64,000 bases of DNA from a bacterium (GTDB lineage Bacteria > Joyebacterota > Joyebacteria > Joyebacterales > Joyebacteraceae), in contig JALGZK010000001.1 of the NCBI GenBank assembly GCA_025774935.1, positions 148,266 through 212,265 on the forward strand, given 5' to 3'. The notes below the pieces were generated by a model that saw nothing but the letters and a program-made list of their open reading frames with translations, did no database searches and had not been told where the DNA came from. Position 1 is the stretch's first letter, and each line of letters begins with the position of its first letter. This document shows positions 843 to 33,447 of the stretch, one piece after another. A program made the position numbers and the translations under genes.

Positions 843-1895
843 CTACTTCGGTGCCTTGATCAGGAGCCAGACCCCTATTCCGGCGAAGACGATGTTCCCG
901 GCCCACGCTCCCAGGACAGGCGGAAGGAACCCCTGGCTGCCGAGGACGTCCCCGACCTGAATCAGTCCGAAGTAGATGAACGAGACGGCGAGCGCGGCGG
1001 TGAACGAGATGGCGAACCCGGTCCTCCTCGTCGCGGCGGCGAGCGGGGCCCCGATGAGCGTCATGATGAGCGTCACGAAGGGGAAGGAGATCTTGAGCTG
1101 GAGCTGGACGTCGAGGTCCCGCGGATTGTTGCCGCTCGCGCGCAGCTTCTTTATGTAGCCTCGGAGCTCCGCGTACCCCATCTCCTCCGGCTCAAGACGC
1201 CTCGTGCGGAGATCGTCGGGCGACGGCTCGGTGTAGGGGAGGCGGTACTTCTCGAACGACGTCGCTTCCTCGCCGTCGGGCGTGAAGCGGCGGATTCGTC
1301 CGTTCTCGAGCACCCAGTGCCCGTCCTCCCAGCGCCCTCGCTCGGCGTCGATTCTCATGGTCGGGTTCGACTCGTCGTCGAACTCCTCGACCGTGACCTG
1401 GTCGAGCCTCTTCTTGCCGACGTTGAACCTGCGCGCGAGAAGCATGACGCCGTCCGGGCGGATGTAGATGACGTCGGTCCGCACTGCCCGGTCCGCGCGC
1501 CTCGACAGGTGCGTCTCCTTGATCTCGAGGCGGCGCCTGGTCGCGGGTGGCATGGCGACCTCGCCTATGAAGAGGGACGCCAGGCTCAGTCCGACAGCCA
1601 GGAGGAGCACGGGAGCGAGGATCCGGTAGAGCGAGACCCCGCCGCCCTTCATCGCCATGATCTCGTTGCTCCGCGAGAGACGACCGATGGCGAGGAGGCT
1701 CGCGAGGAGCATCGCGACCGGAGCCGTGAGCACGACGATCCACGGCATGTAGTAGAGGTAGTAGAGGAAGACGATTCCGGGGCCGACCTTGTTGTCGATG
1801 AACTTGTTCGCGTGGTCGAACAGGTCGACGAGTATGAAGATCCCGACGAACGCGATGAAGACGAGGGCCAGCGGTCTGGCGATCTTCCGGAACAT
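843..1895 (-). CDS. lptG: LPS export ABC permease LptG (YjgP/YjgQ family)
   Basis: The 461-aa ORF was trimmed to the internal ATG at 1895 (MFRKIARPLALVFIAFVGIFILV…), a typical N-terminal TM helix of the LptF/G family. It sits 17 nt downstream of the upstream paralog. No SD sequence is seen before this ATG. Confidence 0.8.
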   Translation of the reverse strand: MFRKIARPLALVFIAFVGIFILVDLFDHANKFIDNKVGPGIVFLYYLYYMPWIVVLTAPVAMLLASLLAIGRLSRSNEIMAMKGGGVSLYRILAPVLLLAVGLSLASLFIGEVAMPPATRRRLEIKETHLSRRADRAVRTDVIYIRPDGVMLLARRFNVGKKRLDQVTVEEFDDESNPTMRIDAERGRWEDGHWVLENGRIRRFTPDGEEATSFEKYRLPYTEPSPDDLRTRRLEPEEMGYAELRGYIKKLRASGNNPRDLDVQLQLKISFPFVTLIMTLIGAPLAAATRRTGFAISFTAALAVSFIYFGLIQVGDVLGSQGFLPPVLGAWAGNIVFAGIGVWLLIKAPK

Positions 1896-1912
1896 GTAGG
1901 AGTCGAGGGTGG

Positions 1913-3268
1913 TCACGCGGCCTCCTCGGTTTCTGCAGGTCTCGTCGGAACCCGGAGGAGGAAGTCGAGGACGCGCGTGAGAGGCTGGACGCGCCACTCG
2001 CGGCACGTGGCCAGCGTGAGGAACAGACCGAGGCCCCCGAACAGGACGTTCGGCGCCCACATCGCGAGCGGCGGACTCACGAGTCCGCGGTCGCCGAGCT
2101 GCTCTCCCCCGATGAGGAAGAGGTAGTAGACGAGGAAGAAGAGGATCCCGATCCCGGCGCCCATCCCCACACCGCCTCGCCTGCTTCGGATCCCGAGAGG
2201 CGCGCCAAGGAGCACGAACACGATACACGAGAACGGGATCGAGAACTTCTTGTGGTACTCGACGTTCAGCTGCCGCGTCCGCTTGAGGGCTCCGCGGACC
2301 TGTCGGGCCTCGGACACGATCTCCCGGGTGACGCGTTCCCGTTCCGAGCCGACCGTCGCGCCGTCGGGGAGGCTCCCGGTGCCGTCGGCGAGGTCGAGGA
2401 GGGCCCCCACGAACCCCTGAGCGGCCTCTTTCTGTTTCTCCCTCGATGCCCCGATCTCCACCGTGTGCCGGGCGATGTCCTCCTGAAGCTCCTTCATCGA
2501 CATCTCTCGGTCGCCTCGCCTGGCCCCTTCGCCCCTGACGAAGGCCCCCATCCCGGCGTCGAGGTTGATCACGTGCCTGTCGAATAGCAGTCGGTTATAC
2601 CTCGTCGCATCCTCGGGATCGATCTCGTGTATCTCTCCGTCGAAGAGCTCCATTCTGAGGACGTTCTCCGTCTGGCTGCTCGAGATCACGCCACGCCTGG
2701 CAACGATGGTCTGCAGGGGCTCTCCGCCCTCGATCTTGTGGATCCTCACCTGGAAGATCTCCGACGTCCGGGGATCGAGCTGGTCGACGACGATCGTGTA
2801 GCCTCCGGGAAGCTCCGTGAGGATCCCGGGTTCGATCGTCGCGAGCGGCCTGACCCGGTGGATGTCGACCAGGAGCGTCTTGAGCCGGAAGTTGGCGGCC
2901 GGCAGGACGTGGTTGCCGAAGTAGAAGAGCGCGGCGGTGGCGACCGCTGCGGCGACCATGACCGGGAAGACGAGCGACCAGACGTTGACCCCGTTCGCCT
3001 TCGAGGCGGTGATCTCGTTGTCCCCGGAGAGGCGTCCGAAGGCCGTCAGCACCGCGACCATGACCGCCATCGGGACCGCGAGGACGGTCATCCACGCGAG
3101 GCTCAGGAGGAAGGCTTCGAGCACGGCGATGCCCGGAACGCCCTTCGTGAGAAAGAGGTTCAGGTAGTCGACGATGAAGTCCATAGAGAGTACGAAGTAG
3201 AAGAGAGCGAGGCCGGCGAGGGCCGGCGCGATGTGGGCTTTGAGAACGTATCTCGTCAGTATTCGCAT
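1913..3268 (-). CDS. lptF: LPS export ABC permease LptF (YjgP/YjgQ family)
   Basis: 451-aa ORF with an N-terminal TM and a large periplasmic domain between TM3 and TM4, typical of LptF. It is tandem with lptG. Confidence 0.8.
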   Translation of the reverse strand: MRILTRYVLKAHIAPALAGLALFYFVLSMDFIVDYLNLFLTKGVPGIAVLEAFLLSLAWMTVLAVPMAVMVAVLTAFGRLSGDNEITASKANGVNVWSLVFPVMVAAAVATAALFYFGNHVLPAANFRLKTLLVDIHRVRPLATIEPGILTELPGGYTIVVDQLDPRTSEIFQVRIHKIEGGEPLQTIVARRGVISSSQTENVLRMELFDGEIHEIDPEDATRYNRLLFDRHVINLDAGMGAFVRGEGARRGDREMSMKELQEDIARHTVEIGASREKQKEAAQGFVGALLDLADGTGSLPDGATVGSERERVTREIVSEARQVRGALKRTRQLNVEYHKKFSIPFSCIVFVLLGAPLGIRSRRGGVGMGAGIGILFFLVYYLFLIGGEQLGDRGLVSPPLAMWAPNVLFGGLGLFLTLATCREWRVQPLTRVLDFLLRVPTRPAETEEAA

Positions 3269-3272
3269 GGTC

Positions 3273-3330
3273 GGTGGTCAATCGGGCCGGTGGTCAATCG
3301 GGCCGGTGGTCGAACGGTCCAGTGGTTGAG
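3273..3330. repeat. Tandem 16-bp direct repeats (GGTGGTCAATCGGGCC x2 perfect, a third degenerate copy and a partial fourth) abutting the lptF start codon
   Basis: Read directly: 3273-3288 and 3289-3304 are identical. 3305-3320 (GGTGGTCGAACGGTCC) differs at 4 positions. 3321-3330 is a further decayed partial copy. Confidence 0.6.
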
Positions 3331-3495
3331 AAGCCGACCTGGGCTCCAGTATTCACCGCTCGGGGAGAGAGAGGGCGAGCGGACCCGAGCCGAGCCCGAC
3401 GGGTGAAGGCACGGGCAGACGGCGTGGCGTGAGAACAACGTATACAATCAAACCTCCGGGACCCGCAACAGCATTGTGGGTGAGGCCGCCGCATC

Positions 3496-3524
3496 TTGAC
3501 ACCGCGCTCCGGCGCTGGTACATT
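3496..3524 (+). promoter_or_regulatory. sigma70-like promoter (TTGACA-17-TACATT) upstream of the giant OMP gene
   Basis: -35 TTGACA at 3496-3501, a 17-nt spacer, -10 TACATT at 3519-3524. This implies a 5' UTR of about 180 nt. Confidence 0.45.
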
Positions 3525-3712
3525 GCCGACGGCCGCGCCCCTTCCAGGAAGGCCAGCGGAGGGGTCCGGAGGGGTGTACAGCTCGAACCGCCGAGACGCG
3601 TCGTCCGTCGCGGCGGCCGTTCCGGATCGCCGACCGCCCCGACCCGGCCGCCTTCGAGAGACCCCCGGACTCGGGAGACGCATCACCAAACGCGCGCACG
3701 CGGAGCCGTACC

Positions 3713-6700
3713 ATGCGTGTAGATCGCACGCCGCGGACCATACTCGTCGCCGGGGCCGCCACGGTCGCGGCGCTCCTGTCCGTGGTGGCGCTGCCTCTAC
3801 CGCTCCACACGCAGGAGGCCGAGGGACCGCCGGAGGGAGCACCCGCCGACACCGTGGCTGAGCAGCCGCCGACGCCCGCTGCCGAGGTCGTCGTGGAGCC
3901 ACTCGCCGGGCCCGAAGGGGCCGCTCCGGACGGGCCGCCGGCGCTTCCCGACGCGACGGGGGTCGAGAGCGCCCCGCCTGAGGCAGCGGCGGGCGCGGCC
4001 GCCGACTCGCTCCACGAGTTCGCGCTGCCCAACTCGCTGGCGCTTGAGTTTGCGCCCCCCGACACCTTCATCGGCCCGCCGACCGACATGTACGAGGCCG
4101 CGCTCGGGCCCGACCTTCCTCCGGTCGATCCGTACGCGCTCGGCGTGGCGCTTCCCCACACGGTACCCCCCTTCGTGAGACCGTGGGACCTCTCGGCCAT
4201 CCGTGGCCGCAGGGGCCTCGACGTCGTGGCGCCGGAGGTGATCATGTCTCCCGTCGCCGGGACGCCATTCACCCGCGAACTCGTCGTCGACCGCGAGCGC
4301 GACTCGATCGTGCTCGTGACGCGCGCGGGCGACTCGTTCAAGCGCGTGAGCTACGCGGCCCCGCTCTCCGAGTTCATGCGCCACGGCGGGGGGGAGAGGG
4401 TCGAGGACACCTGGATCACGACGTCGCAGTACGAGCTCGGCAAGGGCGTCGAGTCCGGACCGGGGGGACTGCTCGACATCGACATCCCGATGCCCCTCGG
4501 CGCAGGAGCGAACCTGAGGGTGCGCGGGAGCGAGCGGATCACGTTCGGCGGACAGACGAGCTACGTGGTCGAGGCGCTCGACTCGGAGGGCGGCGCTCCG
4601 TCGCGGTTCCCGCAGCTCGACATGGAGCAGCAGCTCACGGTGAACCTCGAGGGGACGATCGGCAACAAGATCCACGTGTACGTCGACCACAGGAGCGGCG
4701 GCGACACGTTCGGGACCGGAAAGGCGAACGAGATCCGTGTTCACTACGAGGGCGAGGAGGACGAGATCGTCCAGAGGATCGAGCTTGGCGAGGTGAACCT
4801 GTCTCTTCCGGGGACCGAGTTCGTGAGCTACAGCGGTCACGCGCAGGGGTTGTTCGGGGCCAAGATGCTCGCGAAGCTCGGGAAGCTCGACGTGACAGCG
4901 ATCGCGAGTAAGGAGGAAGGAAAGACGTCCGGCGCGAGTTTCACGGGGACGTCGCAGGCCGACTCGCTCGTGATCAAGGACATCCAGTACAAGGCCGGCA
5001 CCTTCTTCGCGGTCGACAGCCCGTCGCTCAAGTACGCCGACCGGGCCGTCGAGAACATCTCTGTCTACATCGATGACTTGAACGGCGCGAACGACGTCGA
5101 GACGGGTGCGCAGGTCGGAGTCGTGTACCTCGTTGAGGAGGAGGGCACGATCGATCCCGGCGACACGACCGCGGTGAAGCAGATCGGCCGGTTCGACGAG
5201 CTCGTGGCGCTCGAGGACTACCTCTTCGACAACCAGAGCGGAGTGCTCGAGTTCCTCTTCCCGATCCCGGACGGCCACGTTCTGGCGGTGAGTTACAATC
5301 GCTTCGACCCGTACTCCGTGGGCGGCGCCGACGGTGACACCCTGCGCCTCAAGATGATCAAGAAGGACGGCCGAGTCCTCGGGAGCCCCTGGGAGCCGAC
5401 GAGGCGGTTCCAGCTCAGGCACGTGTACGACTTGGGCGCCGACAACATCCCCGAAGAGGGATTCGCGCTCACCATCCGCAAGAAGAGCGCGTCGGGAGAG
5501 GACCCGGACGTGGAGAACGGCGTCCCGTACGTCGAAATCCTCGGACTCGACACGGAGGGCGCCGGAGGCGATCCGACGCCGGACGGCGCGGTTGACCCCC
5601 AGTGGCTCGATCTGGAGAAGGGCTACCTCTACTACCCGTACTACACACCGTACTGCCCCGGCTGGGACACAACGGGCTTCTACTACGATCCGGGGAACCC
5701 GCCGCCTCCCGAGTTCGTCGCGGAGGAACTCGAGGAGTACAACTGCGCGGTCTACAACAACGAGGTCTTCCAGGCTGGCGACGACCTCTACTACATGGTC
5801 GTCAAGTACAGCAGGCCCCAGACGACGTTCTACCTGGGACAGATCAACATCATCGAGAACAGCGAGATCGTACGGCTGAACGGCGTCCCGCTCACGCGTG
5901 GGACCGACTACACGATCTACTATCCGGCCGGGCAGCTCACGCTCCTGAACGAAGAGGCGAAGGAACCCGAGGCGAAGGTCACCGTCGAGTTCGACTACAA
6001 GCCGTTCGGGATCGCGGGGGAGAAGACGCTTCTCGGAGGCCGCGGCGTCTACCGCTGGAGCGAGAACGTCGAGCTCGGGACGACCTGGATGTACCAGAGC
6101 AAGGGGACGCCGGACGACCGTCCCCGGCTCGGCGAAGAGCCGACCAGGAACGTCGTGGGAGACGTGAACCTCTCGGCGGACTTCGCCCCGTACTGGATGA
6201 CGGCGGCGGCCGACGCGGTTCCCCTCGTCGACACGGACGTGCTCTCGCGCCTCAGGATCGCCGGCGAGGCCGCCGTCAGCATCCCGGAGCCGAACACGAA
6301 GGGCTTCGTCTCGATCGACGACATGGAGGGTGTCGATCAGACGAACATGCTCGGCGTGCAGCGCCGCCTGTGGTCGTTCGCGAGCGCACCGGAAGAGCTC
6401 GGAGTAGAGATCACGGACCGAATGCCCATCGACTGGTACAACCCGGACCGCAAGGTCCGGGAGGGCGACCTCCACCCGAACCTCCCCACGAGCGAGGCCA
6501 ACGAGACGCACACGGTGCTCGAGATCGACTACGACGCCGCGAACTCGGCCTCGTGGGCCGGACTGATGCGGCTCATCTCCAAGCTGGGAAGCGACTACTC
6601 GAGGGACACGTACTTCGAGATGTGGGTCAACGACGACGGGCATCGTCAGGGCAAGATCCACATGGACCTCGGCACGATCAGCGAGGACTATTACCCGCTC

Positions 6701-9700
6701 GACCCCGCGATCGGTCCGAACGGAGAGCTGGACACCGAGGACGTCGACATCCCGCCGAACGGGTACGACGCCGACGAGGACACGGGCCTCGACAACGTGT
6801 GGGGAGCCGACGGCGACAACGTGCCCGGCGACGACGGGGACGACGACTACGCGTTCAGCTTCGGCTCGGACGACTACAGTCAGATCAACGGCACGGAGGG
6901 CAACGAGAGGTTCGACACTGAGGACCTGAACGGGAACACGTACCTCGACGTAGAGAACCGCTACTGGGAGCTCGTCATCGATCTCTCGGACACGACGTAC
7001 CTCATGCAGGACAACAGCGACCCGGATCAGGTCCCCGATCCCGAGAAGCGAACGGACTGGCGCCTGTACCGCATCCCGCTCTCCCACGCGACGTCGGTCG
7101 GGGGCGTGCTGGACTGGACAGTGATCAAGTCCGCCAGGCTCTGGGTGGAGGACCTCACGGTCGGCGCCGAGCCCCTCATGATCGGATCGCTCGACATCAA
7201 GGGCAACACGTGGGAGCGGCAGGCCGTGAGGGACGAGGAAGGGAATCCGGTTCCGGAAGAGGAGCTGGGCGATCTCGAGTTCATCGTGGGAGCGGTGAAC
7301 ACGAAGGAGGATCCCGAGTACGCCAACGACCCGCCGTTCCCCCCGGGGATCGACTCGGAGACGAACCTGCCGGAGCGCGAGCAGTCGCTGTCCCTGAACT
7401 TCCTGAACCTACCGGGCGAGTGGAACGTCTCCGCGAAGAACGCCTTCTTCTCCGAGGAGGACTACACGCGTTACGAGACCCTCGAGTTCTACGTGCACGG
7501 TGACGACGACGTGGCAGACGGGACGCGGTTCTTCCTGCGCCTCGGGGCGGACAGTCTGAACTTCTACGAGTACAGCCTCGAGCTTAGAGAAGGTTGGCGT
7601 CAGGACCTGGGAAGCGCGTCGAACAGACTGGCCGTCGCGTTCAAGTCGTTCACCGACCTCAAGCTCGATCCGTACGCCGACCAGGACACGGTGGCCGTCT
7701 GGGGTGACACGACGCGTGTGAAGGGCGAGCTCTTCAGGCGAGTCGGCTGGCCGTCGCTCTCGAGGATCAGCGCGCTTGCGGTCGGAGTGAGGAACGACAG
7801 CGAGGACTTCGTGGGGAACGAGATTTCCGGCTCGGTCTGGGTCGACGAGCTCCTGCTCACGGACGTGCGGAAGGAGATCGGCTGGGCGGAGCGTGTGACG
7901 ATCAACTCGAAGTTCGCAGACCTCGCGGTGATCGACTTCGACTTCAGGCACGTCGACGAGAACTTCCACACCCTGAAGCAGACGCGGGGATCCGGTTCGG
8001 ACAACGTCGTCTACAACCTCACCGGCACGCTCAACTCGGACAAGTTCGTGGGGGGCATGGGGCTCTCCGCGCCCCTGAACTTCACGTGGAAGAAGACGCA
8101 AAGTCGACCGGAGTTCTCGACTGGGTCGGACATCGTCCTTGATGCGGAAGAGAGCGAGGAGGAGAAGACCGTCTCGCGTGAGCGGACGCTCGCCGCGTCT
8201 CTCGCAAGGAGGAGACAGTCGCAGAACTTCTGGACACACCTGTTCATCGACGGCCTCGCGCTCAGAGCGTCCGTCTCCGACAACGTGCGGCAGTCGCCGA
8301 CCAGGATCGACACGTCGAGCACGATCCGCGGCAGAATCGCCTACAAGTACCAGCCCGAGAGGTCCCCGATCAGGCTCTTCGGCAACACGGACCTCTTCGT
8401 GAAGCCCACGAGTCTGCGGTTCCTCGTGGAGACGCACCTGATCCACAACAAGAGCTACGACGTCGCGGCCGACGGACTGGTCACGCGCAGGGTGAACACG
8501 CACGACAACAAGCTGAACGCGGACGGGAACATCGACTTCCAGTTCCTGGACAACCTCCGGACGACGCACGGCGTGTCCTCGAGGCGCGACCTGACTCGGC
8601 CGATCAAGGAGATCGGCGATGTCACGGTGGGACTCAACATGGGCTCGGAGACCGAGCGCCGATACGCCAACAGCCTCAACTTCAACCCGAAGTTCGGCCA
8701 GTGGTTCGCGCCGCAGTACAGCTTCTCCTCGAACTACACGGACAGCCACGGCCCGGAGATCAGGCGGCCGGGAGATCCCGCGAAGGTGCACAACATCCGG
8801 TCGCAGACGAACCAGGAGCTGCGTGCGAGCTTCGACCTGAAGAAGCTGCTCGGTCCCGGCCCCGCTGCGATGCCGTCGCGACCGCCTCCGCGCGAGCGGC
8901 AGCCCTCGAGGACGGGCACGAGCGGGAGCACGGGACGCGAGAGTCCCGACTCGGGATCGGTCGGAGCGGCGGGCGGCCGCGAAGCGCCGGAAGGGACGCC
9001 CGGCGCCTCCGGGGCTCCGGAGCCCGGGAGAAGCGAGGGGACGGGAGAGGAAGATGCCGGAGAGGGCCGCCAGGGGCAGGAGGGCGCCGAGGGCCAGGAG
9101 GGCGAGGCGGGAGACCAGACGGGAGAGCAGGAGGGGGAGCAGGAAGGGGAGCAGGAGGAGCCGCCGGGTGAGGGGCCCGGACTGGGCGACGTCGTGCGTC
9201 CCATTGTCACGTTCCTGCGTGAGATGGACGCGATCGACGGGAGAATCGGTCTGAGGTGGGACTCGAGGTACGACCGCGTCCCGCACGAGGACGTTCCGGA
9301 CTGGAAGTACAAGCTCGGGCTAGACAGGGGCCGCGACGCGGACGACCGGACCGAGGAGACGACCTTCGACCTCGGAACGGGATTCAAGTTCACGAACCAG
9401 ATCCGTCTGAAGGGGGACTTCAAGCGAACGCACTCGGGCAGATGGTACAAGAGCGTGGTGTCCGACACGATCTTCATCATCAGCCAGACAAAGTCGATGA
9501 ACGAGACCACGAAGGGGACGTTCTCGTGGAACGCGCTCGAGAAGATCGGACCGCTTTCGGGAGTGTTCCAGAGCGTGCGCGCGCGGAGCGGGATCGAGTA
9601 CCGCCGGTCTTACTCCGGACCGGTGGGGACGCCGACCTCCGAGGGGAGCGCGCTCCTGTTCAACCCGATCGTCTCGGTCGACACGAAGTTCAAGAACGGC

Positions 9701-10126
9701 CTGAGCGCGAACCTCGCCTGGGACAGGAAACGCACGCTGTCACACAGCCTGACGGGAGCGGGCTCCGTGACCGAGGACAAGACGTCGTCGTTGAGCCTGA
9801 CGCTCAACTACAGGTTCTCAGCGCCTCAGGGACTCAAGCTCCCGTTCTTTGGCCAGAGCGTGAAGTTCACGAGCAACCTCGACACGGCACTCACGTTCCG
9901 GACGGGCTCGAAGGAGACGCGGACGGCTCAGGACGAGTCGAGTCTGTCGCAGGTCGACCCGACGTCATCGACGAGGGACATCTCCGTCGTCGCGGACGCG
10001 ACTTACAGCTTCTCCCGGAACGTGTCCGGAGGACTTCAGGTCAACTTCTCGCAGAGCCGGGACGTCAAGCGGGAGCAGACCCGGCGGACAATCGGCATGC
10101 ACGTGACAGCGGAGTTCAAGTTCTAA
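3713..10126 (+). CDS. sprA: Giant (2137 aa) secreted outer-membrane beta-barrel protein, SprA/Sov-like T9SS translocon candidate
   Basis: Uninterrupted 6.4-kb ORF with an N-terminal signal peptide (MRVDRTPRTILVAGAATVAALLSVVALPL) and a C-terminal aromatic OMP signature (…VTAEFKF-COOH). Its size class matches SprA. A cargo gene with the T9SS C-terminal sorting-domain signature is present in the window (29662-31668). The ORF itself is near-certain; the SprA assignment is inference without HMM search. Confidence 0.6.
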   Translation: MRVDRTPRTILVAGAATVAALLSVVALPLPLHTQEAEGPPEGAPADTVAEQPPTPAAEVVVEPLAGPEGAAPDGPPALPDATGVESAPPEAAAGAAADSLHEFALPNSLALEFAPPDTFIGPPTDMYEAALGPDLPPVDPYALGVALPHTVPPFVRPWDLSAIRGRRGLDVVAPEVIMSPVAGTPFTRELVVDRERDSIVLVTRAGDSFKRVSYAAPLSEFMRHGGGERVEDTWITTSQYELGKGVESGPGGLLDIDIPMPLGAGANLRVRGSERITFGGQTSYVVEALDSEGGAPSRFPQLDMEQQLTVNLEGTIGNKIHVYVDHRSGGDTFGTGKANEIRVHYEGEEDEIVQRIELGEVNLSLPGTEFVSYSGHAQGLFGAKMLAKLGKLDVTAIASKEEGKTSGASFTGTSQADSLVIKDIQYKAGTFFAVDSPSLKYADRAVENISVYIDDLNGANDVETGAQVGVVYLVEEEGTIDPGDTTAVKQIGRFDELVALEDYLFDNQSGVLEFLFPIPDGHVLAVSYNRFDPYSVGGADGDTLRLKMIKKDGRVLGSPWEPTRRFQLRHVYDLGADNIPEEGFALTIRKKSASGEDPDVENGVPYVEILGLDTEGAGGDPTPDGAVDPQWLDLEKGYLYYPYYTPYCPGWDTTGFYYDPGNPPPPEFVAEELEEYNCAVYNNEVFQAGDDLYYMVVKYSRPQTTFYLGQINIIENSEIVRLNGVPLTRGTDYTIYYPAGQLTLLNEEAKEPEAKVTVEFDYKPFGIAGEKTLLGGRGVYRWSENVELGTTWMYQSKGTPDDRPRLGEEPTRNVVGDVNLSADFAPYWMTAAADAVPLVDTDVLSRLRIAGEAAVSIPEPNTKGFVSIDDMEGVDQTNMLGVQRRLWSFASAPEELGVEITDRMPIDWYNPDRKVREGDLHPNLPTSEANETHTVLEIDYDAANSASWAGLMRLISKLGSDYSRDTYFEMWVNDDGHRQGKIHMDLGTISEDYYPLDPAIGPNGELDTEDVDIPPNGYDADEDTGLDNVWGADGDNVPGDDGDDDYAFSFGSDDYSQINGTEGNERFDTEDLNGNTYLDVENRYWELVIDLSDTTYLMQDNSDPDQVPDPEKRTDWRLYRIPLSHATSVGGVLDWTVIKSARLWVEDLTVGAEPLMIGSLDIKGNTWERQAVRDEEGNPVPEEELGDLEFIVGAVNTKEDPEYANDPPFPPGIDSETNLPEREQSLSLNFLNLPGEWNVSAKNAFFSEEDYTRYETLEFYVHGDDDVADGTRFFLRLGADSLNFYEYSLELREGWRQDLGSASNRLAVAFKSFTDLKLDPYADQDTVAVWGDTTRVKGELFRRVGWPSLSRISALAVGVRNDSEDFVGNEISGSVWVDELLLTDVRKEIGWAERVTINSKFADLAVIDFDFRHVDENFHTLKQTRGSGSDNVVYNLTGTLNSDKFVGGMGLSAPLNFTWKKTQSRPEFSTGSDIVLDAEESEEEKTVSRERTLAASLARRRQSQNFWTHLFIDGLALRASVSDNVRQSPTRIDTSSTIRGRIAYKYQPERSPIRLFGNTDLFVKPTSLRFLVETHLIHNKSYDVAADGLVTRRVNTHDNKLNADGNIDFQFLDNLRTTHGVSSRRDLTRPIKEIGDVTVGLNMGSETERRYANSLNFNPKFGQWFAPQYSFSSNYTDSHGPEIRRPGDPAKVHNIRSQTNQELRASFDLKKLLGPGPAAMPSRPPPRERQPSRTGTSGSTGRESPDSGSVGAAGGREAPEGTPGASGAPEPGRSEGTGEEDAGEGRQGQEGAEGQEGEAGDQTGEQEGEQEGEQEEPPGEGPGLGDVVRPIVTFLREMDAIDGRIGLRWDSRYDRVPHEDVPDWKYKLGLDRGRDADDRTEETTFDLGTGFKFTNQIRLKGDFKRTHSGRWYKSVVSDTIFIISQTKSMNETTKGTFSWNALEKIGPLSGVFQSVRARSGIEYRRSYSGPVGTPTSEGSALLFNPIVSVDTKFKNGLSANLAWDRKRTLSHSLTGAGSVTEDKTSSLSLTLNYRFSAPQGLKLPFFGQSVKFTSNLDTALTFRTGSKETRTAQDESSLSQVDPTSSTRDISVVADATYSFSRNVSGGLQVNFSQSRDVKREQTRRTIGMHVTAEFKF

Positions 10127-11028
10127 TGACGAGACCACGCAGTTCACAAGGGACAGCACTGGCCGCCGTTCTCCTGGCCGCCGTCGCGCTCGCGGGTGCG
10201 GGATGCGGAAGGGCGGAGTTCGACGAGGAGGTTGCGTTCGCGTATCTTATTCGCCAGTGCGAGTTCGGGCCGCGGGCCCCCGGCAGCCCTGGCCACGCGG
10301 CAACGCTGGAATGGCTCACCGGGACGCTCTCGCAGTCGGCTGACCAGGTGGCCGTGCAGCGGTTCAGGAGCGAGTCGCCGGCCGGGGGCGTCGATCTCAC
10401 GAACGTGATCGCATCGTTCCGTCTCGAGGAACGCGAGCGCGTGCTTCTCGCGGCGCACTGGGACACACGGATGGTGGCCGACCGCGACCCGGACCCCGAG
10501 CGGCGGTCCGAGCCGATTCTCGGGGCCAACGATGGCGCCTCCGGCGTCGCGGTTCTCGTGACGCTCGCGGAGCTCATGGCGGAGCGCGCACCGTCCGTCG
10601 GCGTCGACCTTCTGTTCTTCGACGGCGAGGACGGCGGAGGCGGGGGAGGCCTGGGCGACTGGTGCCTCGGGTCGTCGTACTACGCGGCGCACGTCGGAGG
10701 GTACGCCCCGCGGTACGCGGTCGTGATCGACATGGTCGGCGACAGCGACCTGGGCATCCCCAAGGAACCGAACTCGCTCGCGGCGCACCCGGAGGTCGTC
10801 CGCGAAGTCTGGGACGCAGCGGAGCGCGTCGGCTCGACGAGCTTCCTCGACCACGTGGGCCCCGCGATGTACGACGATCACGTCCCCCTCATCCGGTCGG
10901 GCATCCCCGCGGTGCTCGTGATCGATCCCCACTACGAGAGCTGGCACACGACCGAAGACACCCCCGACAAGTGCAGTCCGGCGAGCCTGGGTGAGGTCGG
11001 CCGGGTCCTGGTCGAGCTCATCTACTAG
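10126..11028 (+). CDS. Lipoprotein, M28-family metallopeptidase / glutaminyl-peptide cyclotransferase-like
   Basis: ATG at 10126 overlaps the upstream TAA by 1 nt (TAATG). Signal peptide with a Cys lipobox-like site (…LAGAGCG). M28/QC-type metal-binding motifs are present (HWDTR, FFDGED, DMVGD, SWHTTEDT). Confidence 0.6.
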   Translation: MTRPRSSQGTALAAVLLAAVALAGAGCGRAEFDEEVAFAYLIRQCEFGPRAPGSPGHAATLEWLTGTLSQSADQVAVQRFRSESPAGGVDLTNVIASFRLEERERVLLAAHWDTRMVADRDPDPERRSEPILGANDGASGVAVLVTLAELMAERAPSVGVDLLFFDGEDGGGGGGLGDWCLGSSYYAAHVGGYAPRYAVVIDMVGDSDLGIPKEPNSLAAHPEVVREVWDAAERVGSTSFLDHVGPAMYDDHVPLIRSGIPAVLVIDPHYESWHTTEDTPDKCSPASLGEVGRVLVELIY

Positions 11029-11240
11029 GCGGGCCTGCTGCTCGGGGCCTCGTCCGGGCGCCCGCGGGCGCCCCGGACCGGTCCTCCCCGCACCCGACTC
11101 GAGTTCGGCCTCCCAGGGCCCGCTGCGAGCCCTTCGCCCAAGTTTTCGCTTGCGCCCCCCGGGGGCCCGTGCTACCTTTTGTCGCGGGAAGTGGGCTGGG
11201 TGCCCACTTTCTCCGTATACGGCCCGGAAAGGGTGCGAGC

Positions 11241-11690
11241 GTGGAACGGATCGACGAGCGTCTGTATGACCTCACGGCGGAGCTCGTGGCCGGGATGGGC
11301 TTCACGCTCGTCACGGTCGACGACGTCGTCGAGCACGGGCGGAGGACCTTTCGATTCACCATCGACCACGAGAGAGGCATCACGGTCGAGGACTGCGCGG
11401 GCGTCAGCCGCGAGATCGCGTACCTTCTGGACGACGAGCTTGCCCTCGAGGCGCGCTACGTTCTGGAGGTCAGCTCGCCGGGACTCGACCACGCACTCCG
11501 GAAGGAACGGGAGTACGCGCACTTCACCGGCCGGGAGGCCCGACTGGTCGTGAGGGAGCCGGTTGACGGAGAGAACGTCCTGACGGGGACGATCCTCGGA
11601 GCGGAGAAGGGCTCAGTCCGTCTGGACGTGGACGGCACGGAGATCGTCGTGCCACTTGAGAACGTCTCTCGCGCCCGACTGGTCATGTAG
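11241..11690 (+). CDS. rimP: Ribosome maturation factor RimP
   Basis: RimP-like sequence (…ELVAGMGFTLVTVD…EVSSPGLDHALR…), located immediately upstream of nusA as in most bacteria. The start is uncertain: GTG 11241 is preferred, but an in-frame upstream start at 11169 is possible. Confidence 0.7.
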   Translation: MERIDERLYDLTAELVAGMGFTLVTVDDVVEHGRRTFRFTIDHERGITVEDCAGVSREIAYLLDDELALEARYVLEVSSPGLDHALRKEREYAHFTGREARLVVREPVDGENVLTGTILGAEKGSVRLDVDGTEIVVPLENVSRARLVM

Positions 11691-11751
11691 CGAAGCCCGG
11701 CGGCGGGCGAGCCCGCCCGGCCGGTCAACTCGAGTTGAGGAGACACGCAAG

Positions 11752-13434
11752 ATGAACACCGGAATCCTGGAGGCGCTCCGGAGGATCGCGCGGGAGAAGC
11801 AGCTCGACGGCGCGCTCCTCGTCGAGGCGCTCGAGGCCGGGCTGATGTCAGCGGCCCGGAAGAAGTACGGACCCGCGGCCGACATCGAGGTGCTCGTCGA
11901 CGACGAGACCGACACGCTCGGGGTGTACCTGAACAAGACCGTCGTGGACGATCCCGAGGACCCGATCACGGAGATCGAGTTCGAGGAGGCGAGGGAGCTC
12001 GACGGCACGGCGGAGGACGGCGACGTTGTGAGGGTGGAGGTGCCGCTCGACGAGTTCGGGAGAAACGCGATCCAGGCGGCGAAGCAGATCGTTGTCCAGA
12101 GGGTCCGTGAGGCCGAGCGGGAGCAGATCTACGGTGAGTTCCAGGACCGGATCGGTGAGATCGTCACGGGGGACGTGCAGCAGATCGAGCGCGGCGGAAT
12201 CGTCGTCAACCTCGGGCGCACCGAGGCGCTCCTTCCGACACGGGAGCAGATCAGGCGCGAGCGCTATCGCCAGGGCGACAGGGTGCGCGCGTACCTGCTT
12301 TCGGTGGAGAAGACGACGAAGGGGCCGCAGATCATCCTCTCGAGGACTCATCCGAACTTCCTGAAGAAGTTGTTCCGGATGGAGGTCCCGGAGATCTACG
12401 ACTCGGTCGTGGAGATCATGGCGATCGCGCGGGAGGCCGGCGGACGCTCGAAGGTCGCGGTCGTGTCGCACGACGAGCGGGTCGATCCCGTCGGCGCCTG
12501 CGTCGGCGTCAAGGGATCGAGGATCCAGACGATCGTGCGGGAGCTTTCCGGAGAGAAGATCGACATCGTTCCGTGGAACGTCGACCCGGCCGTCCTCGTC
12601 TCCAGGGCCCTCAACCCCGCGAAGGTATCGAGGACGCTCGTGAACGAGGCCGAACACGCCGTGAAGGTGATCGTGCCGGACGACCAGCTGTCGCTCGCCA
12701 TCGGGAAGGGCGGACAGAATGCGCGACTCGCTGCGAAGCTCACCGGTTGGAAGATCGACATCGTCGGAGAGACGGAGCACACGAGGGAGCTCGAGATCGA
12801 CCTCGCGCAGCGGGTGAACGTCAGCGAGCTGCCTGGAGTCGGCGCCAAGATGGCGGAGAACCTCGCCGACGCCGGGTACCGGCACGTTCAGGACCTGGAC
12901 GGAATCTCAACGGAGGACCTCCTGAACGTACCGGGCGTCGGAGCCAAGACTGCCGAGAAGATCTCTATTGCCGTCGCGGCAGTGCTCGAGGTGCTCGACG
13001 AGGAGAAGCAGGTGCTCCTGAAGGAGATCGAGGAGCAGGCGCGCGCCGAGGCGATGAGGGCGGCGGAGGCACGAGAGCAGGCGGCGCGGGAAGAGGAGGA
13101 GGGGCGGGAGGAAGAGGACGCCGAGGAGGGTGAGGAGGAGGTCGAGGAGGACTCCGAACAGGAGGCGCCTGAGGCCGAGGACACCGATCAGGGCGCCGCC
13201 GAGGATGCTGAGGAGACGGACGAGGAGGAGGTCGTCGAAGAAGTGGTGGACGAAGAAGAAGTCCCGGACGAAGACGCGCCGGAGGGCGACGAGGAAGAGG
13301 AGCCTGAGAGCGAAGAGGAAGACGAGCCTGAGGGCGACGAGGAAGACGAGACCGAGTCCGACGACGAAGCTACAGCCGACGGAGAAGACGAGTCCGACGC
13401 GGAGGAGGAACCCGCCGACGACGAGGATCGATAG
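11752..13434 (+). CDS. nusA: Transcription termination/antitermination factor NusA with a long polyacidic C-terminal tail
   Basis: ATG 11752 is preceded by GAGGAG. It contains the N-terminal domain, S1 and KH1/KH2 (…VGVKGSRIQTIVRELSGEKIDIV…). The C-terminal ~140 aa are almost entirely D/E. Confidence 0.9.
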   Translation: MNTGILEALRRIAREKQLDGALLVEALEAGLMSAARKKYGPAADIEVLVDDETDTLGVYLNKTVVDDPEDPITEIEFEEARELDGTAEDGDVVRVEVPLDEFGRNAIQAAKQIVVQRVREAEREQIYGEFQDRIGEIVTGDVQQIERGGIVVNLGRTEALLPTREQIRRERYRQGDRVRAYLLSVEKTTKGPQIILSRTHPNFLKKLFRMEVPEIYDSVVEIMAIAREAGGRSKVAVVSHDERVDPVGACVGVKGSRIQTIVRELSGEKIDIVPWNVDPAVLVSRALNPAKVSRTLVNEAEHAVKVIVPDDQLSLAIGKGGQNARLAAKLTGWKIDIVGETEHTRELEIDLAQRVNVSELPGVGAKMAENLADAGYRHVQDLDGISTEDLLNVPGVGAKTAEKISIAVAAVLEVLDEEKQVLLKEIEEQARAEAMRAAEAREQAAREEEEGREEEDAEEGEEEVEEDSEQEAPEAEDTDQGAAEDAEETDEEEVVEEVVDEEEVPDEDAPEGDEEEEPESEEEDEPEGDEEDETESDDEATADGEDESDAEEEPADDEDR

Positions 13435-29661: not shown

Positions 29662-31668
29662 CTACTTCAGGAGCGTCATCTTCGTGAACGCGCTCTCGCT
29701 GCCGGCACTCACCTTGGCGAAGTAGACACCGCTCGCGAGACGGTGCCCGTCGTCGTCCTTCCCGTCCCAGACGGCGAGCGCGGGCCCCGGAGGGAGCGTC
29801 TCGTCGACGAGCGAGCGCACCACGCGTCCGCTAAGGTCGAGGATCGTGAGCTCGACGCGCTCGGCGCCGGACGGCACGGTGTACGCGATCTTCGTCACGG
29901 GATTGAACGGGTTCGGGAAGTTCTGTGAGATCGCGAGCCTGTGCATCTCGCCTTCCTCGACACCCACCGCCGGTGCGAACCAGTCCAGGATCCTCCCGAG
30001 GAGCGTCGTCCGGTTGCTCGGAGTCGGATCGTCCATGCTCACGGACTCGAACGCGAACGTCGTGAAGACGATCTTGTGTCCGTTCTCGGCTACCTTGAGT
30101 CCCTGGATCCCGGAGGTGCTCGTGAAGATGGTCTCGGACGGCGAGTCGATCACGATGGCCTCGGCGTTGTTCCCGAGAGGGTACCAGAGCTCGTCCAACA
30201 CCATCCCGTCCGAGATCACATCGCCGTCGACGCCCACGACCGTGTACTGCCCGACTGCGTTTATCCACGACGTGATGTGCATGTAGTCCGTGGTCATCGT
30301 CGTCGAGCCGGGGAGACTCGAGAGGTAGTTCATGCTCGAGAGATAGAGGTTCCCGCCGCCGTCCAGGTACGACATCAGGACGTCCTCGTCATCGCCGAGG
30401 TCCGTCGCGAAGCCGGAGCCGGTCGTCCACAGAACCGTGGAGTACGACGAGAGCAGATCCAGCTCGGGTCGTCCGCGGTCGTCGGCGATCCAGACCGTCG
30501 CGCCGAGCCCCAGGTTCGAGAGAGGCTCCTCCCACCACGCGTGCCAGCCCCATCCGTCGTCGTCCGCGACGAGGAGGAGGGAGGGCACCTCGACGAACGT
30601 CGAGAAGGAGACCTGGTCGCTGGCGGCCCTACTGCCACCGCTCACGGCCGACAGGGTCGTCACGGCCATGCCCTCAGCCGTCCCGATGTTGTCGACGACG
30701 CGTACCTCGAGGTCGAGATCCTCGCCGACACCGAGGGCGAACTCCGTCGGCTCGGTGTACCAGGTGCCTCCGACCTCCCGGAAGCTCGCCTCCCAGTCCG
30801 CCGGCCCGACTCCGTCGGGCAGCACGTCCTGGTTGACGCTCACGGTGACGACGTTCGCCGCGAGCCCGATGTTCGAGAGCGTCGCCGTGTACGTGGCGGT
30901 TCCGAGGTAGCCGATCTCCTTCGCGTAGTCGGTCGTCGCCATCTGGACGGAGTAGAGATCGGGTACGACCTGCGCGTTGTACACCACGTGTGGCGACATG
31001 TCCTCGATGAAGACCACCACATCGAGCGCGCCGACGAGCGGCCAAGGGGTGTCGGTGATCGTGAACTCCCTGTGGACCACGACGGAGTCGCCGGGAGCCG
31101 TCAGGACCACATCCTCGTGGGGCAGATGGTCCCGCATGGTCCAGTTGTAGTGTTCGCCGGTCTTCTCGATCACGACGAACTGGGCCCTGAGAACCCCTGC
31201 GCTCACCGGGTCGACGACCTTGAACGTCGCGTCGACCCAGCCGCCCGTCTCGTCGAAGACTCCGTTCGTGCGAATCGTGATCGGGGTGGGAACGGGGAGC
31301 CGCTGGTTTATCCGGTCTCTGTACGCCGAGTAGACGCCGCTCCCGCCGCCGGTATACGTGAGAACCGCGTCGAACTTGCACGTGGGGTGCGCACTGATGT
31401 CCGGGTAGAGGAGCTGCCGGTTGCGGGCCTCGCTCGTGTAGTAGTTGCCGCCAATCCTGCTGTGCCAGTAGATGATGACGAGCTCTTCTTCACTGAAGGT
31501 CCCGTCTCCTCTGAGATTCTCGAGCGCCAACTGCGCATCGGGGCAGAAACTTCAGTTGGTGCCCCCGAAGAGCTCTGCGAGCACCGCTCGCTGCGCGGCA
31601 AATGCCGGCGTGGCCGCGCCACAGAGGATCAGGGCAGAGAGCCCCAGGATCGCCAATCTTCTCGACAT
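29662..31668 (-). CDS. Secreted T9SS-type cargo protein (Por_Secre_tail C-terminal domain) whose signal-peptide exon is separated from the mature part by one in-frame TGA (31552-31554): selenoprotein candidate or nonsense pseudogene
   Basis: ATG 31668 with AAGGAG 6 nt upstream encodes a canonical signal peptide (MSRRLAILGLSALILCGAATPAFA|AQ…). In the same frame a TGA occurs after …ELFGGTN, and the frame continues …SFCPDAQLALENLRGDG… for 622 aa. It ends with a T9SS CTD (…VRSLVDETLPPGPALAVWDGKDDDGHRLASGVYFAKVSAGSESAFTKMTLLK). Confidence 0.6.
31521..31540 (-). other. SECIS-like bulged hairpin 11 nt downstream of the in-frame UGA (mRNA: CGA-U-GCGC-AGUUG-GCGC-UCG)
   Basis: Hand-folded from the minus-strand mRNA: a 7-bp stem with a single bulged U and a 5-nt loop containing GU. 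Spacing to the UGA matches the E. coli fdhF SECIS arrangement to within 1 nt. Confidence 0.3.
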
Positions 31669-31940: not shown

Positions 31941-31993
31941 TATTCTGACAGGATGCAGTGAAGTTCACGAACCCGCAGGTCAAGGAGGACACC

Positions 31994-32767
31994 ATGCGCG
32001 GGAAGGTGACGATCGTGGTGGCAGTCGTTGCGGTGCTTCTGATGGCCCTCGTCGCGTCTGTCCACGCCCAGGAGGGCGGCATGTCGAGCAAGCGGCCGGA
32101 GGCGACGGAGGCCGACAAGAGCGCCGCGGAGACCGCGGCGGACGAGGCCGTGGCAGAGACGGCAGAGGCCACAGAGGAGGCGGCGACGGTGATGGCGACC
32201 CTCACGTACTTCGAAGGCGGCAAGGGCGAGAAGGGCGCGAAGAAGTCGATGGAGGTGCAGTATCTTCCCGAGGGCAGGAAGGTTGCGACCCTCGAGACTT
32301 CGAAGGGCGTCGTTAAGATCGAGCTCTGGGAGGACCTCGCTCCGAACACCGTTGTGAACTTCGTCTACCTGGCCAACAGCGGGCGTTACGATGGCGTCGA
32401 GTTCCACAGGGTCATCGGCGGCTTCATGGCCCAGACGGGCGACGTGGAGAAGAAGGGCGGCTACGGAGGTCCCGGCTACACGATCCCAGCCGAGTTCAGC
32501 GCCGATCTCCATCACACCGAGGGCGTCGTCTCCATGGCGCGGTCGTCCGACCCCGACTCCGCGGGAAGCCAGTTCTTCATCATGCTCGCGAGCGCGACGC
32601 ACCTGGACGGGAGCTACGCGGCGTTCGGCGAGGTCGTCGAGGGAATGGACGTCATTCACAACATCAAGAAGGGTCCCAAGGAGAAGAACGGAGCCGTCGA
32701 GGACCCGGACACCATCGTGAAGGTGAGAGTCGAGACCGTCCCGGCGGAGGTCGCACCGGAGGAGTAG
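31994..32767 (+). CDS. ppiB: Secreted peptidyl-prolyl cis-trans isomerase, cyclophilin type
   Basis: ATG 31994 is preceded by AAGGAGG. Signal peptide, a D/E/A-rich linker and the cyclophilin core (…FHRVIGGFMAQTGD…GSQFFI…). Confidence 0.85.
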   Translation: MRGKVTIVVAVVAVLLMALVASVHAQEGGMSSKRPEATEADKSAAETAADEAVAETAEATEEAATVMATLTYFEGGKGEKGAKKSMEVQYLPEGRKVATLETSKGVVKIELWEDLAPNTVVNFVYLANSGRYDGVEFHRVIGGFMAQTGDVEKKGGYGGPGYTIPAEFSADLHHTEGVVSMARSSDPDSAGSQFFIMLASATHLDGSYAAFGEVVEGMDVIHNIKKGPKEKNGAVEDPDTIVKVRVETVPAEVAPEE

Positions 32768-32811: not shown

Positions 32812-33447
32812 TTGAATCACCTGAAGAACCAGGCGATCGGAGTGGCGTGCGTCGCGGCGCTGATCGCGGGGCTGGCGTTCCCGGCCGTGTCCCAGGAGGA
32901 AGGCGAGACCGCTGAGGAGACGGTGGCCCAGATCGAGGAGCTGCGGTCTAGGCTCGAAGAGACACCGGACTCCGCGGATCTCTGGCTGGAGCTGGGAAAC
33001 GTCTACTACGAGAGCAACCTCCTGGACGACGCCCTGAACGCATACCTCGCGGCCGTGGAGCTCGCTCCCGACCACGCGGGGGCGCGCCTGAACCTGGGCT
33101 CGCTGTATGCCGACCGCGCTGACTTCGTGTCTGCCGTCTCGGAGCTCGAGAAGGCGATGGAGCTGGCTCCGCAGAACGCGATGGTCTACACGAACCTGGG
33201 CAGCACCTACTACGCGCAGATGAAGTACGCCGACGCCGTGGAGATGTACAGGACGGCGCTCGAGATGGACCCGAACAACATCGAGGCGCACTTCAACATG
33301 GCGGTCGCGTTCGCCGACGCGCAGCTCTTCGACGAAGCGATAAGGGAGTGGCAGAAGGTCATCGAGATCGCTCCCGAGGCTCCGGCGGCCCAGGTGTGTC
33401 GAGAGAACATCCAGATGATCGAGGAGTTCAGGGCGCAGTTCAAGTAG
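32812..33447 (+). CDS. Secreted TPR-repeat protein
   Basis: TTG start preceded by GGAGGT. Signal peptide and at least four TPR units (…LGNVYYESNLLDDALNAYLAAVELAPDHA…). Confidence 0.7.
   Translation: MNHLKNQAIGVACVAALIAGLAFPAVSQEEGETAEETVAQIEELRSRLEETPDSADLWLELGNVYYESNLLDDALNAYLAAVELAPDHAGARLNLGSLYADRADFVSAVSELEKAMELAPQNAMVYTNLGSTYYAQMKYADAVEMYRTALEMDPNNIEAHFNMAVAFADAQLFDEAIREWQKVIEIAPEAPAAQVCRENIQMIEEFRAQFK

Follow-up and report, generated by a model that had tools for sequence, protein, structure and literature searches.

Type IX secretion systems (T9SS) and the Q-rule, under which exported proteins present an N-terminal Gln that a glutaminyl cyclase (QC) turns into pyroglutamate, are both regarded as hallmarks of the Bacteroidota. 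The original description treats the Q-rule as Bacteroidetes-specific; outside that group it reports a scattered 'continuum', with Q-values of up to 77% in Ignavibacterium (Bochtler et al. 2018, PMC5837995). In Porphyromonas gingivalis, pyroglutamate stabilises envelope proteins (PMC5837995, PMC10653852), and the Q-values of T9SS proteins are among the highest, at 86% (PMC10653852). The phylogenetic co-occurrence of T9SS and Q-rule has been noted, but a mechanistic link has been argued against (PMC5837995; 2023 mBio, PMC10653852). We found discussion of such a link only in Bochtler et al. 2018 (PMC5837995), where it is discounted on P. gingivalis data: mutation of the N-terminal Gln of gingipains leaves T9SS export unblocked, which was taken to argue against a role in targeting. 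The P. gingivalis enzyme, PgQC, is N-terminally lipidated and membrane-anchored (PMC7948796). The accessory subunits known for the T9SS outer-membrane translocon SprA/Sov (PorV, Plug and PPI, and the linkers PorW/PGN_1783) are encoded or purified with the translocon, whereas no SprA/Sov complex has been reported to contain QC. Here we analyse a 64,000-nucleotide stretch of contig JALGZK010000001.1 (hereafter the window) from a Candidatus Eisenbacteria genome, in which the stop codon of a sprA gene overlaps the start codon of a QC gene, and we follow this gene pair into other phyla.

The larger gene of the pair lies on the + strand at 3713-10126 and encodes 2137 amino acids, according to the list of open reading frames (ORFs) and its translation. 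The window has a GC content of 67%; the GC3 of 0.89 in the coding frame of this gene supports the + strand frame, and the long antisense ORFs are shadows of the high-GC sequence. The original prediction, made from the letters of the window, had called the product SprA-like, and the profile searches agree. With the NCBIfam model TIGR04189 ('T9SS outer membrane translocon Sov/SprA') the product reaches 529.3 bits in five matched stretches, the cutoff being 200, and with PF14349 (SprA_N) it reaches 89.8 bits, the cutoff being 27. The sole relatives in the PDB are the Flavobacterium johnsoniae SprA chains 6h3i_A and 6h3j_A (E=9e-30, three stretches), and the C-terminus, ...AEFKF, is similar to the beta-signal of outer-membrane proteins. 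By these matches the 2137-residue product is a true SprA/Sov T9SS outer-membrane translocon. With F. johnsoniae SprA (6H3I/6H3J) and P. gingivalis Sov it has in common the TIGR04189 equivalog assignment, the giant size, a signal peptide and the C-terminal aromatic beta-signal. It differs from the solved F. johnsoniae chain in length (2137 against 2403 residues), with a pairwise score of only ~106 bits, and from both proteins in a 103-residue acidic/Gly-rich insert and in its host, a candidate phylum outside the Bacteroidota. A signal peptide is predicted for residues 1-33 (3713-3811, +) with the candidate cleavage site ...PLHT|QEAEG; cleavage is probably at LHT|Q, with an unusual T at -1, and would expose Gln34 (codon 3812-3814). 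The insert, E/G/Q/P-rich and of low complexity, comprises residues 1721-1823 (…GEQEGEQEGEQEE…; 8873-9181, +) and is situated in the C-terminal third of SprA.

The second gene runs on the + strand from the ATG at 10126 to the stop at 11028 and encodes 300 amino acids. This ATG is taken as the correct start, since a complete signal peptide with a lipobox results from it (MTRPRSSQGTALAAVLLAAVALAGAG-C27, ending ...LAGAG-C27; 10126-10206, +, with Cys27 encoded at 10204-10206). The Cys is conserved in orthologues, and the product is predicted to be a membrane-anchored lipoprotein, lipidated at Cys27. Peptidase_M28 (PF04389, 109 bits) is the sole Pfam family recognised. In a phmmer search of the PDB the leading matches were 3tc8 from Parabacteroides distasonis (1.6e-48), BtQC (4fuu/7d1d, 2.5e-48), PgQC (6qql, 1.3e-46) and TfQC (6qro, 1.5e-45). 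The best 40 matches are all QCs or proteins since re-assigned as QCs, with animal QCs at ~1e-13 and genuine aminopeptidases at 6e-7 or weaker. An AlphaFold2 (AF2) model (pLDDT 88.7, pTM 0.86) likewise has QCs for all of its best 50 Foldseek matches in the PDB, the bacterial ones 3tc8, 7d1e, 4fuu, 6qql and 6qro leading with TM 0.81-0.86. Of these, 3tc8 and 4fuu were formerly annotated as aminopeptidases and have been re-assigned as QCs, BtQC having been solved with QC inhibitors (PMC7948796).

Residue criteria for QCs were taken from PMC7948796 and mapped to PgQC numbering through 7cje, and invariance was judged in two alignments of 14 and 28 sequences (A1 and A2). The zinc ligands map to D136, D169 and H274, corresponding to PgAsp149, Asp183 and His299. 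Asp136 is followed by Gly137 (PgAsp149-Gly150; 10531-10536, +); the residue after the first zinc-ligand Asp is Gly in QCs and Asn or Asp in aminopeptidases (PMC7948796). The catalytic Glu168 precedes the bacteroidal-type zinc ligand Asp169 (PgGlu182-Asp183; 10627-10632, +), the QC-specific Trp273 precedes His274 (PgTrp298-His299; 10942-10947, +), and W179 stands at the position of PgTrp193, all of them invariant. Asp202 in the DMVG motif (10729-10731, +), also invariant, is the counterpart of human QC Asp248 in the alignment to QCs and would act as a catalytic-network residue like it. At the position of PgPhe294 the loop is shorter and holds no aligned equivalent; Tyr270 is nearby, one position off.

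Judged by sequence, hallmark residues and predicted fold, the 300-residue product, which had been called M28/QC-like, is a bacteroidal-subtype type II (animal/bacteroidal-type) glutaminyl cyclase and not an ordinary M28 aminopeptidase, and it would be expected to cyclize Gln. It is ~36-37% identical to the bacteroidal QCs (PgQC PG_2157/PGN_0202, TfQC, PiQC, BtQC BT_2548 and PdQC), with which it shares the zinc set Asp-Asp-His, with Asp in place of the animal Glu, the Asp-Gly and Trp-His pairs, the Trp of WCLGS and the N-terminal lipoprotein signal, while its loops are shorter and lack the 3-8 residue insertion preceding the Trp-His motif. Close homologues, at 59-73% identity, are labelled Candidatus Eisenbacteria (Eiseniibacteriota, a candidate phylum). 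A metagenomic sprA-linked QC (locus L088, 9057-9959) is without the lipobox Cys and has the type I signal peptide ...LAYG|QSGL instead; because of this site it would itself expose an N-terminal Gln.

Reading the sequence directly, sprA and QC were found to have TAATG at 10124-10128 (+) in common, as the original prediction had it: the last A of the sprA TAA stop is the first base of the QC ATG, so that one base belongs to both genes. As such an overlap permits re-initiation, a single mRNA could yield both proteins in a set ratio to each other, and sprA and QC are likely to be translationally coupled. This sets the arrangement apart from that in P. gingivalis, where the QC gene heads an operon with PG_2158 and hemG (PMC10653852).

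Conservation of the pair was surveyed from both genes. On the QC side, a scan with a QC alignment, restricted to one genome per GTDB species, gave 80 loci from many phyla, and their neighbours were assigned by tblastn and all-against-all clustering. In 40 of the 80 loci sprA lies immediately 5' of QC on the same strand. The linked loci come from Eisenbacteria, Gemmatimonadota (14 loci), Marinimicrobia/Neomarinimicrobiota, Zixibacteria, KSB1, Calditrichota, some Ignavibacteria, Zhuqueibacter and further metagenome-assembled genomes (MAGs). Four of the ORFs 5' of QC, taken from different groups, were scored with TIGR04189 and gave 474-939 bits. On the SprA side, a metagenome scan with an alignment of the SprA mid-region (A5, 6 sequences) gave 80 sprA loci, of which 71 were informative, with the 3' end of sprA complete and 0.8 kb or more of sequence downstream of it; QC is found directly 3' of sprA in 52 of them. 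Two other SprA alignments were dropped as probes, one of the C-terminus (A3) being too divergent at ~20% identity and a 19-sequence one of the mid-region (A4) offering no searchable conserved stretch. Found from both search directions, the sprA-QC pairing is conserved in no fewer than seven named groups of phylum level, which is far wider than had been guessed.

The form of the junction is kept along with the adjacency. Among the QC-side loci the usual junctions are TGATG or TAATG (1-nt overlap), ATGA (4-nt overlap) or gaps of 1-6 nt; TGATG, the equivalent 1-nt overlap, is found in L001, L003, L005 and L048, and ATGA is typical for the Gemmatimonadota loci. Of the junctions evaluated on the SprA side, 28/41 are overlaps or gaps of at most 10 nt. 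Three loci of Eisenbacteria type, L001 and L003 (two MAGs retrieved by exact-protein look-up) and L005 (from the genome scan), agree with the window in the 1-nt overlap of sprA and QC and in the gene order around them, namely ahcY, the divergent lptG and lptF, sprA and QC, followed by rimP, nusA, infB, DUF503, rbfA, DHH, truB, ribF, rpsO and pnp. In two more divergent Eisenbacteria (L046 and L055) sprA and QC are adjacent with short spacers.

The genes 3' of the pair vary from phylum to phylum. They are rimP-nusA-infB in Eisenbacteria, and a ComEA-like helix-hairpin-helix protein, pilB, pilT and pilC in Gemmatimonadota. In loci of the Marinimicrobia type they encode a lipoprotein, a protein bearing a T9SS C-terminal domain (CTD), a PorV-family protein, a PorQ-like protein and a polysaccharide deacetylase, the PorV-family proteins scoring 92.9 and 96.7 bits with PorV_fam against a cutoff of 90. 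Because the flanking genes differ by phylum, the sprA-QC adjacency must have been kept through rearrangements. In the Marinimicrobia type, PorV- and PorQ-family genes stand in the same operon as sprA and QC, an arrangement to be compared with that of the known SprA accessory subunits. One such locus (L015, 2293-14732) shows, after Ham1, a co-directional run of sprA, QC, a small lipoprotein with a choice-of-anchor X motif, a FlgD_ig/CTD protein, a PorV-family and a PorQ-like gene, which ends at a divergent polysaccharide deacetylase; L027, L044, L048, L052, L059, L072 and L083 are of the same locus type.

Linkage is absent from other groups. In Bacteroidota-type loci QC is unlinked, and the QCs sampled there sit between dacB/DUF4097 and prmA-ppx. 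QC is also unlinked in Rhodothermales, in the single informative Fibrobacteres locus, in Poribacteria-labelled loci, where the order is dnaX-recR-QC, and at the sampled loci of Armatimonadota, Sumerlaeota, Cloacimonadota and one Aminicenantaceae MAG. At the low-GC unlinked loci, the genes 3' of sprA are one for a PorX-like response regulator (Response_reg + PglZ) together with tsaE and tsaB. In the sampled Bacteroidota-type sprA loci, sprA is followed by porX-like, tsaE and tsaB genes and, unlike in the window, by no overlapping QC gene. In four Bacteroidota-like loci (L157, L158, L161 and L162, about 9600-13100) the genes 3' of sprA are PorX-like, tsaE, tsaB and one for a DUF1573 protein, not QC. 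Two Gemmatimonadota loci have QC without sprA: in L080 (7249-10828) lptGF abut QC directly, and in L077 (4418-10876) lptGF are followed by ~2.4 kb of unrelated sequence and then QC. As lptGF precede QC in both without sprA between them, QC seems to have stayed in its ancestral place when sprA disappeared or was relocated. A neighbour-joining tree of the QCs roughly follows the phyla, with linked QCs across most clades related to the Fibrobacteres-Chlorobi-Bacteroidetes (FCB) group. The tree and the linkage pattern together fit an ancestral sprA-QC linkage with later losses.

Candidate substrates were sought among the N-termini of exported proteins. A secreted cyclophilin-type peptidyl-prolyl isomerase (PPIase; 31958-32767, +) has the predicted cleavage VHA|QEGG and a tetratricopeptide repeat (TPR) protein (32812-33447, +) the predicted cleavage AVS|QEEG. 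Read by eye, the signal peptidase I (SPI) substrates of the window (n=5) comprise two with a clear Gln, one with a probable Gln, one beginning AQ and one without Gln. Among SprA orthologues of other loci a clear small-x-small|Q site is present in 17 of ~30, and manual reading of the clusters shows that, in linked loci, Gln is often the first residue after the signal peptide in proteins that bear a CTD or belong to the PorV family. Compared with the Q-rule of the Bacteroidetes, the window thus has the same type of QC together with several predicted Gln-exposing SPI substrates (the PPIase, the TPR protein and probably SprA), and many of the SprA, CTD and PorV-family proteins of linked loci are predicted to expose Gln as well.

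We favour, with moderate confidence, the reading that sprA and QC form an ancient operon upheld by selection, in which the translocon is expressed together with a general pyroglutamyl-forming QC of the periplasm and envelope, an enzyme serving the Q-rule and probably not obligatory in translocation. The pair would form a bicistronic unit, a single transcript carrying both genes from a promoter-like site at 3496-3524 (+), ~190 nt 5' of sprA, and possibly running into rimP-nusA in Eisenbacteria. This site, a sigma-70-like match (TTGACA-17-TACATT, TG extended), is the sole one of its kind within 3200-11800, with 0.2 expected from shuffling, although the consensus used is a general one that may not be that of the host phylum; no terminator-like site was seen from it through 11800. 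Ribosomes ending at the sprA TAA would re-initiate on the overlapping ATG, and the QC, exported by Sec and lipidated at Cys27, would be a single-zinc type II enzyme. By homology, it would act on proteins of the periplasm and the outer membrane and on secreted ones, turning the N-terminal Gln that SPI exposes into pyroglutamate, and its substrates would include SprA itself as well as T9SS components and cargo. The operon may have arisen in the wider FCB-related radiation and been broken up in Bacteroidota and Rhodothermales, with sporadic losses elsewhere, and selection would keep sprA and QC coupled in most T9SS-bearing lineages outside these two groups. A general role of the QC is suggested because the gene persists without sprA at the L080 and L077 loci and is not linked to sprA at the loci with Poribacteria and Armatimonadota labels, because the PPIase and the TPR protein of the window, neither of them cargo, are predicted to expose Gln, and because SprA orthologues and many CTD and PorV-family proteins of linked loci are Gln-first.

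Several points weigh against this reading. A general role would not obviously predict a persistent coupling to sprA instead of to lepB or Sec genes. The sole CTD cargo of the window is predicted to begin with AQ and not with Q, and the HT|Q cleavage site of SprA is non-canonical. Enzyme activity, lipidation and coupling are each read from the sequence. Two heuristic predictors of signal peptides and cleavage, applied to 1.4 Mb of loci to obtain Q-values, were dropped as they picked shadow ORFs and cytoplasmic proteins; in the control, Bacteroidota-type loci gave 21% compared with ~70% in the literature. Because the automated Q-values failed this control, the Q-rule in Eisenbacteria draws on a few manually read N-termini. 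Relatives of the query are over-represented in both surveys, which also include near-duplicate metagenomic contigs, and the linked proportions of 50% and 73% are not population frequencies. Taxon names of the loci are taken from the titles of MAG records.

The QC could instead be a dedicated accessory of the T9SS translocon that sits beside SprA or is bound to it and cyclizes cargo N-termini at their hand-over to the pore, which we consider unlikely. Translational coupling is typical for complex partners, and the stop/start coupling persists across phyla independently of the flanking genes. Moreover, QC in the Marinimicrobia type lies within a run of T9SS genes (sprA, QC, lipoprotein, CTD protein, PorV_fam, PorQ-like), and CTD proteins in linked loci are frequently Gln-first. 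The Q-value of the P. gingivalis T9SS proteins mentioned above (PMC10653852) points the same way. Against such a role, QC is kept without sprA in L080 and L077 and stands unlinked at the loci with Poribacteria, Armatimonadota and Sumerlaeota labels, gingipain Gln mutants are still exported by the P. gingivalis T9SS (PMC5837995), and PgQC is described as associated with the inner membrane (PMC7948796, PMC10653852). The solved SprA complexes contain PorV, Plug and PPI but no QC, the main text of a published Sov/T9SS interactome study makes no mention of QC, and the window cargo is predicted to be AQ-first. The suggestion in the original prediction that N-terminal processing of cargo is part of the secretion machinery is accordingly not upheld: QC without sprA (L080, L077), Gln on proteins other than cargo and the P. 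gingivalis export data all speak against it. What the linkage demonstrates is that the two genes are expressed together and selected to be inherited together; it does not demonstrate that QC takes a mechanistic part in translocation.

A historical form of this idea, which we hold to be rather doubtful, would have the QC act as a co-assembled translocon accessory in FCB-related groups outside the Bacteroidota (Eisenbacteria, Gemmatimonadota, Marinimicrobia, Zixibacteria, KSB1, Calditrichota and some Ignavibacteria), with pyroglutamate capping linked to the T9SS first, later generalised and unlinked in Bacteroidota. If true, it would overturn the view that Q-rule and T9SS merely co-occur.

That the adjacency is inherited synteny without function, two envelope housekeeping genes having stayed together since a common ancestor, appears improbable. 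The rough match between the QC tree and the phyla is consistent with vertical inheritance, the likewise conserved position of lptFG beside sprA suggests a stable neighbourhood of envelope genes, and in Eisenbacteria the whole region from ahcY through lptGF, sprA and QC to rimP-nusA-infB is syntenic. However, the 3' flanks are wholly different in Eisenbacteria, Gemmatimonadota and the Marinimicrobia type, and the junction is still overlapping or within 10 nt, whereas neutral synteny would not usually keep a start/stop overlap across phylum-level divergence. Finally, an ordinary di-zinc M28 aminopeptidase, produced along with SprA and perhaps trimming secreted proteins, is a very improbable product of the small gene: the Pfam assignment, the public annotation of relatives as 'M28 family peptidase' or 'Zn-dependent amino/carboxypeptidase' and the retained second-zinc residues (equivalents of His111 and Asp202), which are reportedly kept in true QCs as well, would allow it, but the QCs filling the best 40 sequence and best 50 fold matches, aminopeptidases following at 6e-7 or weaker, the presence of the QC-specific Asp-Gly, Glu-Asp, Trp-His and Trp179, and the re-assignment of the closest solved relatives 3tc8 and 4fuu to QCs, with BtQC solved with QC inhibitors, speak against it.

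What appears to be new is the coupled sprA-QC operon and its breadth; both genes belong to known families. The genetic link had been put forward as previously undescribed, and our literature searches, full-text searches included, found no paper describing a sprA-QC operon or a T9SS in Eisenbacteria; term searches of the Q-rule papers PMC5837995 and PMC10653852 found no mention of sprA-QC linkage. A coupled pair that survives phylum divergence and full turnover of its flanks is strong comparative evidence of selection tying the two genes. It also suggests a far greater age and a far wider spread of pyroglutamate capping than the term 'Bacteroidetes-specific' implies. The link between T9SS and QC becomes directly testable in culturable Gemmatimonadota or Ignavibacteria, and T9SS loci of candidate phyla can be recognised in genomes by the pair. 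The finding also bears on the QC inhibitors under development against periodontitis, because it helps to show which envelope functions need QC.

Within the same 64 kb lies a candidate T9SS cargo gene (29662-31668, -), a point of resemblance to the known SprA/Sov system. The CTD claimed for its product is of type A and stands at threshold (TIGR04183 23.7 bits against a cutoff of 23; PF18962 22.8 against 27), and its mature N-terminus is, as had been noted, AQ-first, with the predicted cleavage AFA|AQ; cleavage one residue further would give Q. The continuous reading frame given for this gene did not hold, as an in-frame TGA at 31552-31554 had been read through. Among the ~22 window ORFs scanned, of ~45 candidate genes, no PorK/L/M/N/V/U was found. 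The PPIase and TPR genes are divergent beside the cargo gene. The cyclophilin was considered as a counterpart of the SprA-bound PPI and dropped, its matches being generic cyclophilins with no 6H3I chain among the 60 of 154 PDB matches listed.

The TGA separates the signal-peptide N-terminus of the cargo (MSRRLAILGLSALILCGAATPAFA|AQRAVLAELFGGTN) from the remaining CTD protein (SFCPDAQ...). No tRNA-Sec was found in the 64-kb window, and with z=-1.5 the RNA fold downstream lacks the significance to support a selenocysteine insertion sequence (SECIS). The context of the codon, GGTN-TGA-SFCPD, is similar to a UxxC redox motif (U/stop-x-x-C). If Cys is put in for the TGA, the N-terminal region gives weak matches to NF045500 ('Omp28-related selenoprotein', 22.8 bits against a cutoff of 200) and also to Omp28 lipoprotein models. 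The gene may encode a selenocysteine-containing T9SS cargo, may be a pseudogene or may reflect a sequencing or assembly error.

On the 5' side of sprA, the divergent lptG and lptF, encoding lipopolysaccharide export permeases, are located at 843-3268 (-), with PF03739 scoring 277 bits for 1913-3268. The lptG/lptF cluster (cluster 4) is present in 25 loci, of which 22, from several phyla, have sprA-QC. Divergent lptGF 5' of sprA are seen in L001, L003, L005-L008, L021, L028, L030, L035, L058-L060, L068-L071, L079, L081 and others, which makes lptGF a second conserved neighbour of the translocon gene.

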